Shown here: one piece after another, positions 1,172 through 3,940 of the stretch
How positions within the stretch are numbered: the first letter of the stretch is position 1
Layout of the letters: each line of letters starts with the position of its first letter
Assembly (NCBI RefSeq): GCF_003334335.1
Contig: NZ_QOWQ01000074.1
DNA length: 6,951 nucleotides
Source: Escherichia coli
GTDB lineage: Bacteria; Pseudomonadota; Gammaproteobacteria; Enterobacterales; Enterobacteriaceae
Direction: 5' to 3' (one strand)
Made by a program: the position numbers and the translations under genes
Notes under the pieces: model-generated
Database searches by the model: none
What the model was told of the DNA's origin: nothing
What the model saw: the letters and a program-made list of their open reading frames with translations, nothing else

Positions 1172-1179
1172 GCATTAAC
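1172..1179. repeat. Target-site duplication, left copy (GCATTAAC) of the IS66-family insertion
   Basis: The 8-mer GCATTAAC lies immediately outside the left inverted repeat and is repeated exactly at 3933-3940, immediately outside the right inverted repeat. IS66-family elements make 8-bp duplications. Confidence 0.8.
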
Positions 1180-1206
1180 GTGTCGTTACGGGGAAGTCAT
1201 CTTCAC
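1180..1206 (+). repeat. IS66 left terminal inverted repeat (GTGTCGTTACGGGGAAGTCATCTTCAC)
   Basis: Aligns without gaps to the reverse complement of 3906-3932 (GTAAGCTTCCGGGGAACTCATATTGAC), 19/27 identical. The outer tip has diverged from the canonical GTAAGC. Confidence 0.7.
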
Positions 1207-1266
1207 AGGGATCTTCGGTCAGTTAGTATTACCGACATCCATTCACCAACTTACCGGAGATAATCG

Positions 1267-1596
1267 ATGTCAAAACCCCGATGAACCATTGAACAGAAAA
1301 GGCAGCACGTTGCTGCCTGGCGCGCCAGTGGTCTTACACGTCAGCAATACTGTGAACTCAACGATATTCCCTTCACATCACTTCGCGAATGGCCGCAGGA
1401 TGTCGCAAAAGCTGAACGCCGGGCAAATGAACCGACCGTTCTTCCCATTCATATTGCGCCACCACTGCATGCTGATGTACCACAGCCCGTCACGAATGAG
1501 CCAGTCACGCTCTTCCTTCCCGGTGGAGTACGGATGTGCTGTCAGCCGTCACAACTTACCGATGTCTTCAGGGCACTCAAATATGCTCAGTCCTGA
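1267..1596 (+). pseudogene. tnpA: IS66-family TnpA (orfA, helix-turn-helix protein) interrupted by an in-frame TGA at codon 6 (1282-1284)
   Basis: Frame 1 reads ATG(1267) S K P R TGA T I E Q K R Q H V A A W R A S G L T R Q Q Y C E L N D I P F T S L R E W ... F R A L K Y A Q S, stopping at 1594-1596. The HTH-type motif matches IS66 orfA. There is no ATG, GTG or TTG between the TGA and the HTH region, so a full-length product needs readthrough or a reverted stop. The 3' end overlaps the tnpB start by 14 nt, as in IS66 elements. Confidence 0.6.
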
Positions 1597-1962
1597 TAAT
1601 GTCTTCATCGCAATTAAACCTGTTGACATGCGCCGGGGCATCGACTCACTGACGCAGTATATACATCGACATGGCATGAGGGAGCCGCCTTCGTCTTTGT
1701 TAACAAAGCCCGTTCGCGTATCAAAGTTCTCCGGTGGGATAAACACGGGGTGTGGTTGTGTACCCGCCGTCTGCACAAAGGCAGCTTCCGCTGGCCACGT
1801 GCAAATGACGCTGCCTGGCACCTCACTCCCGACGAGTTTAACTGGCTGATTGCCGGTGTTGACTGGCAGCAGGTTAAGGGACATGACCTGACGAAATGGG
1901 TCTGGCAGAATGAACCTGAACTGCGCCCTGAAAACACGCAAAATACACTGCTAACTCAGTGA
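1583..1962 (+). pseudogene. tnpB: IS66-family accessory protein TnpB (orfB) with a -1 frame break between about 1663 and 1692
   Basis: The N-terminal part is in frame 2 from ATG 1583 (MLSPDNVFIAIKPVDMRRGIDSLTQYI...). The C-terminal part is in frame 1 (GAAFVFVNKARSRIKVLRWDKHGVWLCTRRLHKGSFRWP...LTPDEFNWLIAGVDWQQVK) to TGA at 1960-1962. Both halves match the IS66 Orf2 family, and one missing nucleotide would fuse them. The six-frame track shows the C-terminal half as ORF 1750-1962. Confidence 0.75.
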
Positions 1963-1968
1963 AAAATA

Positions 1969-3570
1969 ATGAATATCCGTATCTGGAGTGGTATACTCCC
2001 CTGTATGGATATCTCCGCTCTCAACACCACGAATGACATCGAAAAACTGCGTGCTATGGCACTTGCCATGGTACAAGAAGTCATGTCGGAGAATGCCGAA
2101 AAAGAGCGGGAATTACTGGAGAAAAGCCGGCGCATCCAGCTTCTGGAAGAAATGCTGAAACTGGTTCGTCAACAGCGCTTCGGAAAAAAATGTGAAACGC
2201 TGGCTGGTATGCAACGCTCCCTGTTCGAAGAGGATGTTGATGCCGATATCGCCGCGCTTACCGCACATCTGGATAAACTGCTCCCGCAATCCCCTGAAGA
2301 AGACGAAAAAGCGTCCCGTTCACGCCCGATACGCAAACCCTTACCGGTTCATCTTCCACGGGTGGAAAAAATTATCCAGCCGGACACTGACCATTGCCCT
2401 GAATGTGACGAGCCGCTGCACTATATCCGCGATGCGGTGAGTGAAAAGCTGGAGTATATTCCCGCTCACTTTGTGGTGAACCGTTATGTCCGTCCACAAT
2501 ACAGTTGTCCCTGTTGCCAGAAGGTGTTCAGCGGTGAAATGCCGGCACATATCCTCCCGAAAAGTGCCGTTGAGCCATCAGTCATCGCACAGGTGATCAT
2601 CAATAAATACGGTGACCACCTGCCTCTGTATCGCCAGCAACAGGTCTTTGCCCGTTCAGATGTCGGGCTGCCCGTCAGTTCGATGGCTGACATGGTTGGC
2701 GCGGCGGGTGCCGCATTATCTCCCCTGGCGGCGTTACTCCATCGCGAGTTGATAAACCGTCCGGTGGTGCATGCAGATGAGACTACCCTGAAGATCCTGA
2801 ACACGAAGAAAGGCGGTAAATCCTGCTCCGGTTATCTGTGGGCATACATCAGTGGAGAAAGGACGGGACCGTCAGTTGTGTGCTTCGACTGCCGGACCGG
2901 ACGTAGCCATGAGTATCCTGAAAACTGGCTTCAGGGCTGGGGCGGGACGCTGGTTGTCGACGGACATAAAGCTTACCGGACTCTGGCAAACAAAGTGCCG
3001 GAGATCACGCTGGCCGGATGCTGGGCCCATGCCCGCAGGGGCTTCGCCGACCTGTATAAAATCAGTAAAGATCCACGGGCTGCCATAGCCGTGAAGAAAA
3101 TCGCGGGGTTGTACCGTCTTGAGAAGAAGATCAGTAGCCGCCCCGTGGAAAAAATCCGCCAGTGGCGACAGCGTTATGCCCGTCCGATACTGGAAGAACT
3201 GTGGTCATGGCTTGAAGAGCAGGAACCGCAATGTTCTCCGGGAAGGGCATTACACAAAGCCATTGCCTATGCGCTGTCTCATCGCGTGGAACTGAGCCGC
3301 TTCCTGGAAGATGGTGCGGTGCCGCTGGATAATAATGTGTGTGAACGGGCCATCAAAAACGTGGTTCTGGGCAGAAAATCGTGGCTGTTCGCCGGTTCGC
3401 AGATGGCGGGAGAACGCGCCGCGCAAATAATGAGCTTGCTGGAAACCGCGAAACGCAACGGTCTGGAGCCGCATGCCTGGTTGACAGACGTCCTGATGCG
3501 TCTGCCGGAGTGGCCGGAGGAGCGACTGGCAGAGTTGCTGCCTCTTGAGGGATTTACCTTCTCCGGGTGA
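1969..3570 (+). CDS. tnpC: IS66-family transposase TnpC (DDE transposase with N-terminal coiled-coil/leucine zipper and zinc-finger motif)
   Basis: Intact 533-codon ORF. It has a leucine-rich coiled-coil N-terminus, a CPECDEPLHY...CPCCQ motif, a conserved HADETT region and a C-terminal ...WLTDVLMRLPEWPEERLAELLP tail typical of IS66 transposases. The start may instead be the in-frame ATG at 2005, since neither has a strong SD. Confidence 0.92.
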   Translation: MNIRIWSGILPCMDISALNTTNDIEKLRAMALAMVQEVMSENAEKERELLEKSRRIQLLEEMLKLVRQQRFGKKCETLAGMQRSLFEEDVDADIAALTAHLDKLLPQSPEEDEKASRSRPIRKPLPVHLPRVEKIIQPDTDHCPECDEPLHYIRDAVSEKLEYIPAHFVVNRYVRPQYSCPCCQKVFSGEMPAHILPKSAVEPSVIAQVIINKYGDHLPLYRQQQVFARSDVGLPVSSMADMVGAAGAALSPLAALLHRELINRPVVHADETTLKILNTKKGGKSCSGYLWAYISGERTGPSVVCFDCRTGRSHEYPENWLQGWGGTLVVDGHKAYRTLANKVPEITLAGCWAHARRGFADLYKISKDPRAAIAVKKIAGLYRLEKKISSRPVEKIRQWRQRYARPILEELWSWLEEQEPQCSPGRALHKAIAYALSHRVELSRFLEDGAVPLDNNVCERAIKNVVLGRKSWLFAGSQMAGERAAQIMSLLETAKRNGLEPHAWLTDVLMRLPEWPEERLAELLPLEGFTFSG

Positions 3571-3575
3571 GTGAT

Positions 3576-3643
3576 ACCTGCCGTCAGGTGTTCGTGCACC
3601 GGGCCATAACTTGCAGTCGGGAGTTGAACTCCTGACGGCAGGT
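3576..3643 (+). repeat. 13-bp inverted repeat (ACCTGCCGTCAGG / CCTGACGGCAGGT) forming a long stem-loop 6 nt after the tnpC stop
   Basis: 3576-3588 is the exact reverse complement of 3631-3643. A further 4-5 bp can pair inside the 42-nt loop (GTTC at 3590-3593 with GAAC at 3626-3629). It is not followed by a T-tract. Confidence 0.45.
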
Positions 3644-3697
3644 TATGAGCCAGACCAGCAACCACGCGGGCTGACAGCGAATAAGAACCTGAATCAG

Positions 3698-3788
3698 CCC
3701 GGAGTCATTCCCGGGTCAGTACATCATCACCTGCTATTAATCCCCGAGTCAGTACTTCGCGGCCTGACGCGATCACCCTACTCAGTAC
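3698..3788 (+). repeat. Array of direct repeats in the IS66 3' non-coding region: TCAGTAC three times at exactly 33-bp spacing (3716, 3749, 3782), plus an IR-like CCCGGAGTCAT copy at 3698-3708
   Basis: Read directly: CCGGGTCAGTAC 3711-3722, CCCCGAGTCAGTACTTC 3742-3758, CCCTACTCAGTACTTC 3776-3791. The motif resembles the core of the left inverted repeat (GGGGAAGTCATCTTCAC) and lies in the same orientation as it. Confidence 0.45.
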
Positions 3789-3905
3789 TTCAGAGCCCGC
3801 CTCCGGTACCTGCCTGGCGATCGCCCCTGTGCAACAAAATAAATCAACCGTTATCAAACCACGATCGTTCGTATGCGCCGCCGATGACGCGCGCCTGAAA
3901 AACGC

Positions 3906-3932
3906 GTCAATATGAGTTCCCCGGAAGCTTAC
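3906..3932 (-). repeat. IS66 right terminal inverted repeat (minus strand reads GTAAGCTTCCGGGGAACTCATATTGAC)
   Basis: Canonical IS66 GTAAGC terminus, 19/27 identical to the left inverted repeat, and immediately followed by the second copy of the 8-bp duplication. Confidence 0.75.
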
Positions 3933-3940
3933 GCATTAAC
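3933..3940. repeat. Target-site duplication, right copy (GCATTAAC) of the IS66-family insertion
   Basis: Exact copy of 1172-1179, directly abutting the right inverted repeat. Confidence 0.8.

Follow-up and report, generated by a model that had tools for sequence, protein, structure and literature searches.

An ISEc49-like IS66 element in the agn43-yeeR spacer of Escherichia coli and its probable polar effect

The stretch of E. coli DNA analysed here (6951 bp, called the window below) carries an insertion sequence just downstream of the gene for the Ag43 autotransporter adhesin, and this raises two questions: did the element arrive there by transposition into a site which can still be found empty in other genomes, and what has it done to the gene that follows? 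The features on which the answer depends are given below (window coordinates, strand, description).

1..1088, + strand: agn43 (flu), 3' end only, encoding the autotransporter adhesin Ag43; from RefSeq annotation of matching loci
1109..1133, + strand: hairpin between agn43 and yeeR with a perfect 12-bp stem and no U-tract, already there in the empty site
1172..1179: GCATTAAC, target-site duplication (8 bp), left copy
1180..3932, + strand: ISEc49-like IS66-family insertion sequence, matched by independent copies exactly from 1180 to 3932
1180..1206, + strand: left terminal inverted repeat GTGTCGTTACGGGGAAGTCATCTTCAC
1267..1596, + strand: tnpA, interrupted early by a TGA at codon 6 (1282-1284)
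1583..1962, + strand: pseudogene of tnpB; 13 bp are missing after 1665, which shifts the reading frame
2005..3570, + strand: intact tnpC, IS66-family DDE transposase of 521 aa (alternative in-frame ATG at 1969)
3571..3905, + strand: non-coding 3' region of the IS, conserved in independent copies
3906..3932, − strand: right terminal inverted repeat, GTAAGCTTCCGGGGAACTCATATTGAC on the reverse strand
3933..3940: right copy of the target-site duplication GCATTAAC
3970..4235, + strand: yeeR 5' fragment of about 88 codons, beginning at the ATG that corresponds to the K-12 start
4236..6872, + strand: ISSso4-like IS21-family element inside yeeR
6873..6951, + strand: continuation of yeeR beyond the IS21-family element

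The element has sharp borders. Both copies of GCATTAAC adjoin its ends, GTGTCGTTACGGGGAAGTCAT... at 1180 and ...ATGAGTTCCCCGGAAGCTTAC at 3932, and the 8-mer occurs exactly twice in the window, with a chance expectation of about 0.16; identity of eight bases beside two fixed ends would arise by chance with a probability of 4^-8 (about 1.5e-5). Flank-only homology ends at 1179 and resumes at 3933, the overlap being exactly the 8-mer. Deletion of positions 1180-3940 gives an 84-nt junction which is an exact substring of the K-12 MG1655 genome, and the empty K-12 locus (L001) contains a single GCATTAAC, at position 3272. When the reconstructed empty site is extended to 575 nt, K-12 and numerous further strains match query positions 1-573 without a break, at 100%. 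The empty site is contiguous in 2188 of the 5426 complete E. coli genomes, while both occupied junctions are present in 65 of them, including the well-studied B2 strains CFT073 and ATCC 25922, and the insertion can thus serve as a lineage or island marker. Copies of the locus are found at a median of two places per genome, and many genomes have several. The original prediction had been of a precisely delimited IS66 insertion, with identical 8-mers abutting imperfect terminal repeats and an uninterrupted counterpart in related genomes; all of this agrees with what we found, the counterpart being present verbatim in K-12 MG1655.

The insertion point lies 83 bp downstream of the agn43 stop codon (TGA at 1086-1088, closing the open reading frame 114..1088) and 30 bp upstream of the yeeR ATG at 3970, just the distance that had been estimated beforehand, in a spacer whose length is 120 bp. 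The part of the spacer at 1089-1179 is strongly folded as RNA (-41.7 kcal/mol, z = -5.4), and the hairpin at 1109-1133 is also present in K-12; terminator scans of the occupied and the empty site gave no terminator-like call for this hairpin.

The element belongs to the IS66 family. TnpC matches NCBIfam NF033517 (IS66 family transposase) with 441 bits at a cutoff of 180 and has the IS66-specific Pfam domains LZ_Tnp_IS66, zf-IS66, DDE_Tnp_IS66 and DDE_Tnp_IS66_C (PF03050, PF13817, PF13005, PF13007); tnpA and tnpB precede tnpC, with overlaps or short gaps between the genes, and the intact TnpA and TnpB proteins of locus L003 match NF047593 and NF033819, respectively. An imperfect inverted repeat is made up by the two ends, in which 15 of 21 positions match (19 of 27 when extended). 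The duplicated target is 8 bp long, as it is for plasmid copy L006 and for a second IS66-family element nested in the CFT073 copy. Terminal repeats of this family typically start with GTAA; here the right one begins with GTAAGC and the left one with GTGTCG. RefSeq annotation of identical copies reads “IS66-like element ISEc49 family transposase”, and the name ISEc49, as used here, is solely this PGAP product name, taken from copies that are 99-100% identical. A literature search for “ISEc49” returned incidental mentions only. The element is an ordinary, already catalogued one, and the finding as such is already known.

Two of its three genes are damaged. The nonsense codon in tnpA (W6*) results from a G to A change at 1284; all other copies examined have TGG, and the mutation is private to the window copy among them. 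The tnpB gene is flagged as a pseudogene also in the annotation of locus L002, which differs from the window at three bases. Since both tnpA and tnpB are disrupted, this copy is, judging from its sequence, probably immobile without help in trans.

The reading frame downstream of the IS had been taken for a small membrane gene, an idea that we dropped after alignment with uninterrupted yeeR, which encodes 510 aa in K-12 and 838 aa in strain SCU-101. The 95-aa reading frame is a pseudogene remnant, namely the 5' fragment of yeeR cut by an IS21-family element; it is annotated as a partial pseudogene in L002, and a search with the 93-aa yeeR fragment gave no NCBIfam match. Gene order in L002 is agn43, IS, yeeR 5' part, IS21-family element, yeeR 3' part and a gene for an IrmA family protein, with agn43, yeeR and irmA on one strand. 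In the interrupting element, named ISSso4 family by PGAP, istB (6018-6773) is intact and matches NF038214 (257 bits, cutoff 200), whereas the N-terminal part of istA (4467-6001) matches NF033546 only weakly (46.5 bits, cutoff 160) because the gene is frameshifted. Among the matches listed, independent plasmid copies of this element run from query positions 46-56 to 2693-2701, and the span common to all of those listed, 56-2693, corresponds to window positions 4235-6872. Assignment to the IS21 family is based on istA with its istB AAA+ helper, TG...CA ends, repeated sub-terminal motifs (23-nt tandem repeats containing TGGCAT at 4242-4287) and a short target-site duplication, imperfect in this case (GCTGG and GCGG). 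In the window arrangement yeeR is dead.

The most plausible explanation, to which we assign a probability of roughly 0.85, is a single ancestral transposition with a polar effect, followed by decay of the locus. In this view, an ISEc49-like IS66 element transposed into the 120-bp agn43-yeeR spacer and duplicated the 8-bp target GCATTAAC in one ancestral event, and about 1% of complete E. coli genomes now have this insertion on a genomic island that bears Ag43. RT-PCR in strains EC958 and CFT073 has revealed that agn43, yeeR and irmA are co-transcribed as one operon, and 5' RACE placed the start, and thus the yeeR/irmA promoter, upstream of agn43 (PMC4807369). This phase-variable, OxyR/Dam-controlled promoter, from which the three genes would be transcribed together, is located outside the window, more than 3 kb upstream of yeeR. 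As it is shared, the IS would separate yeeR from it by 2.75 kb of foreign DNA, and the most likely effect would be polar, with yeeR (and irmA, if devoid of its own promoter) uncoupled from agn43 transcription. In CFT073, an insertion downstream of agn43a put an end to IrmA production, and constitutive expression of agn43a did not bring it back (PMC4807369); the loss of IrmA at this locus was again attributed to the insertion in a later account (PMC9431211). That locus carries two nested IS66-family elements, and polarity of a single IS, in the exact arrangement of the window, is extrapolated from this literature. The irmA gene of strain 042 possesses a separate promoter (PMC9431211), so the consequences for irmA would depend on the strain. 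If irmA is expressed in a strain with the window arrangement, the source must be either a promoter of irmA itself or a further copy of the locus. Subsequent decay involved the loss of tnpA and tnpB and the splitting of yeeR by the ISSso4-like element.

It could be argued that the 8-mers are a chance match or a part of the element, and that the IS came in with its flanking DNA through recombination rather than transposition. An island-borne locus can indeed spread by recombination, and one plasmid copy of the element (L005) has unmatched flanks, TGCTGAAG versus GCTGTTTC, which means that rearranged copies exist. However, other copies are flanked by different sequences on both sides, and another independent plasmid copy (L006) has identical element ends next to a different perfect 8-bp duplication, CTTCATTC; the 8-mer is therefore target DNA and not IS sequence. 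Independent copies lacking GCATTAAC rule it out as a part of the element, a possibility that had been named in advance as fatal to the insertion model, and, together with the one GCATTAAC of the empty site and the point at which flank homology stops and restarts, they refute the recombination scenario, which has practically no chance of being correct.

Transposition into the spacer being accepted, the effect on yeeR might still be different from simple polarity. According to the original prediction, the IS had probably come between a native promoter of the downstream frame and its ribosome-binding site, and expression might now depend on read-out from the IS right end. Separation from a promoter holds, but this is the agn43 promoter and not a local one (PMC4807369). 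Many IS elements create outward or hybrid promoters, and the right end is just 30 bp from the yeeR ATG. Moreover, tnpABC are co-oriented with agn43 and yeeR, and the terminator scan found no canonical intrinsic + strand terminator between tnpC and yeeR, so that some read-through into the yeeR fragment is possible. On the other hand, a consensus scan, crude enough to miss weak or non-sigma-70 promoters, saw nothing promoter-like on the + strand of the spacer, whether occupied or empty, and no outward site in the IS right end and leader (3571-3969); across 1000-4300 it gave a single + strand match, which precedes tnpA at the left end of the IS (1202-1229). Behind tnpC, the non-coding 3' region contains a strong hairpin at about 3602-3651 (RNA folding, -50.3 kcal/mol, z = -5.2), and expression of the yeeR pseudogene would yield a truncated product only. 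The RT-PCR and RACE mapping of the yeeR promoter and the abolished IrmA expression after insertion at the same site in CFT073 (PMC4807369) speak against read-out as well. Driving of yeeR from the IS is thus unlikely, and the full scenario of a lost spacer promoter replaced by IS transcription appears quite improbable. RNA folding of the IS end and yeeR leader (3860-3975) was no better than that of shuffled sequences (z = +0.75), giving no evidence of a structured leader, and an Rfam scan of the window found no RNA family at gathering score. One may also imagine that the conserved 362-nt right arm of ISEc49 (3571-3932), with its hairpin and three CCCGRGTCAGTAC-like repeats spaced by 33 nt at 3710-3791, is a functional module, a highly speculative idea which we consider very improbable; it could serve as an array of binding sites for transposase or host factors, or as a conditional terminator/anti-terminator setting the exit of IS transcription, and the insertion would in that case rewire the genes downstream of agn43 instead of simply breaking them. 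Finally, the insertion might be adaptive, uncoupling phase-variable Ag43 from yeeR-irmA in strains with a second, intact agn43-yeeR-irmA copy. Its persistence in 65 complete genomes, B2 strains included, and the multiplicity of the locus would fit this, as would the second, uninterrupted copy in CFT073, which expresses IrmA (PMC4807369); yet the nested IS in CFT073, the IS21-family element in yeeR and the defective tnpA and tnpB have the look of a redundant copy eroding neutrally, and we find adaptation unlikely. A polar insertion followed by decay remains our preferred reading. Such a twice-interrupted copy is relevant to studies of Ag43 and IrmA expression; otherwise, the value of the analysis lies in correct annotation.

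Three known systems can be compared with the window. The flu-yeeR spacer of K-12 MG1655, in the CP4-44 prophage region, has exactly the same site (100% over 573 nt) in its empty form; K-12 differs in having no IS there and in its 510-aa form of yeeR, whose disruption has been attributed to a large deletion (PMC4807369). Over their full length, ISEc49 copies in RefSeq E. coli genomes are 99-100% identical in DNA to the window copy, with which they share the tnpA-tnpB-tnpC layout, IS66-type domains, imperfect inverted repeats, GTAAGC at the right end and an 8-bp duplication, whereas the window copy, at 2753 bp, falls 13 bp short of the 2766 bp of intact copies and has a frameshifted tnpB and a nonsense codon in tnpA. 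In CFT073, the IS, its orientation, the left junction, the GCATTAAC duplication and the operon context are the same, and both GCATTAAC copies are present at the same junctions. The CFT073 locus differs in that tnpA and tnpB of ISEc49 are intact and a second IS66-family element is nested in the ISEc49 right end (8-bp target-site duplication TATGCGCC, at the equivalent of window positions 3872-3879), while the window lacks this nested element and has, instead, an IS21-family element inside yeeR.

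The IS66-family element lies at 1180-3932, and identical copies of GCATTAAC immediately adjoin both its ends (1172-1179 and 3933-3940), these being the only two occurrences of this 8-mer in the window (chance expectation about 0.16). The left end is GTGTCGTTACGGGGAAGTCAT and the right end, read on the opposite strand, is GTAAGCTTCCGGGGAACTCAT; these imperfect terminal repeats are identical at 15 of 21 positions, or at 19 of 27 when lengthened. An empty-site query, made by joining 901-1179 to 3941-4235, was searched against 5426 complete E. coli genomes, and its positions 1-573 found an unbroken match at 100% identity in K-12 MG1655, C600, several O26/O103/O145 strains and others. 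The site is uninterrupted in 2188 of these genomes, and the K-12 flu-yeeR locus contains the predicted 84-nt junction as an exact substring, with one GCATTAAC only. With junction-spanning queries, flank-only matches stop at 1179 on the left and start at 3933 on the right, and thus the flanks overlap by exactly the 8-mer.

Independent plasmid copies match the element exactly over 1180-3932. One of them (L006, NZ_CP065614.1) has identical element ends and a different 8-mer, CTTCATTC, on either side, and the flanking sequences of two others (L005 and L007) differ yet again. Judged from this comparison of sequences, GCATTAAC is target DNA located outside the element. As the empty site was found and the independent copies have other flanks, neither a missing junction nor an 8-mer carried by the element speaks against the precisely bounded insertion that the original prediction described. 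A separate observation concerns L005 (plasmid CP091392.1), where the copy adjoins traB and its end 8-mers are unlike, TGCTGAAG vs GCTGTTTC (293-300 and 3066-3073 of that locus), which suggests a later rearrangement or IS-mediated deletion rather than simple insertion.

RefSeq annotates copies of 99-100% identity as tnpA, tnpB and "IS66-like element ISEc49 family transposase". TnpC (521 aa) scores 441 bits against NCBIfam NF033517 (cutoff 180) and bears four Pfam IS66 domains (LZ_Tnp_IS66, zf-IS66, DDE_Tnp_IS66 and DDE_Tnp_IS66_C). The window copy measures 2753 bp vs 2766 bp in intact copies, the difference being a 13-bp deletion after position 1665 that shifts the tnpB reading frame and is shared with the O10:H32 strain NMBU-W12E19. 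In tnpA, G to A at 1284 turns codon 6 (1282-1284) from TGG into TGA (W6*, a nonsense mutation), a change absent from every other copy compared, while an intact tnpC remains; the copy probably cannot move autonomously. Both IS junctions occur in 65 of the 5426 complete genomes, the matches listed including M16807 (left junction) and G1/2 (right junction), and CFT073, ATCC 25922, DA33137 and M16807 match the left flank and then the IS as far as query position 2781. No complete genome of the collection matches 1100-4000 perfectly; the best matches tie in score, and NMBU-W12E19, the closest locus with 3 bases different from the window, mismatches there only at 1284.

The gene upstream of the insertion is agn43 (flu). 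Downstream, the ORF begins with the ATG (3970) that also opens K-12 yeeR, but in alignment to uninterrupted loci yeeR homology ends at 4234-4235 and picks up again at about 6873, the interval being occupied by a second element:

4236-6872, ISSso4-like IS21-family element, splitting yeeR after about codon 88
4467-6001, istA, frameshifted
6018-6773, istB, intact

Since yeeR homology is broken in this way, the supposed small membrane ORF is, by alignment, the opening ~88 codons of yeeR, here a split pseudogene, and the description of the downstream gene was wrong; the fragment's reading frame enters the second IS for a few codons and then stops. Independent plasmid copies of the IS21-family element share the span 4235-6872. 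Its flanks are GCTGG (4231-4235) and GCGG (6873-6876), so the expected short target duplication is one base imperfect. The left end of the element (4242-4340) has several sub-terminal repeats, about 23 nt long and containing TGGCAT, with degenerate inverted counterparts GATGCCAAT and GATGCGAAT at the right end (6800-6850), a pattern that looks like the multiple terminal repeats usual for IS21-family elements. The length of yeeR itself varies, from 510 aa in K-12 (L001 3309-4841) to 838 aa in SCU-101 (L003 6884-9400), and the K-12 disruption has been ascribed to a large deletion, possibly removing irmA as well (PMC4807369).

The original prediction had the insertion probably separating the downstream gene from its native promoter and perhaps leaving its expression to read-out from the IS. 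The separation holds; a local promoter is not supported. RT-PCR by Moriel et al. 2016 established co-transcription of agn43, yeeR and irmA, and their 5' RACE placed the start upstream of agn43, under OxyR repression (PMC4807369). The promoter of yeeR is thus that of agn43, and the IS66-family element sits between the two. No + strand promoter-like site came up in consensus scans of the occupied spacer, the empty spacer or the IS right arm, and CFT073 with agn43a driven constitutively made no IrmA, which was ascribed to "the insertion downstream of agn43a" (PMC4807369; the account is repeated in PMC9431211). For strain 042, a separate irmA promoter within the yeeR-irmA spacer is described (PMC9431211). 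Polar uncoupling is the best-supported effect of the insertion, rather than IS-driven yeeR expression, and we infer that the CFT073 outcome extends to the single-IS arrangement of the window. The structural reading of the original prediction is correct, and its functional speculation is unsupported.

The right arm of ISEc49 (3571-3932) is an unusually long non-coding stretch of 362 nt, kept in independent copies. It includes a strong hairpin directly after tnpC (about 3602-3651; z = -5.2), followed at 3710, 3743 and 3776 by three repeats that resemble CCCGRGTCAGTAC and are spaced by exactly 33 nt. The native agn43-yeeR spacer has a strong hairpin of its own at 1109-1133, a perfect palindrome with a 12-bp stem and without a U-tract, 21 nt past the agn43 stop codon and present in the K-12 empty site. 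This palindrome could attenuate agn43 read-through into yeeR, which would fit the published induction in an oxyR mutant, lower for irmA (~13-fold) than for agn43 (~121-fold).

The agn43a locus of CFT073 likewise carries ISEc49, with an identical left junction, and both copies of the GCATTAAC duplication were confirmed there. Unlike the window, it bears a further IS66-family element, distinct from ISEc49 and nested within it close to its right end (L004 6795-9474), with ends GTAACCGG...CGCTTAC, a frameshifted tnpC and its own 8-bp duplication TATGCGCC, equivalent to window 3872-3879. Everything in the window's arrangement is of a known kind: a catalogued IS, inserted into a published operon at a site that is itself published, together with a second common IS.
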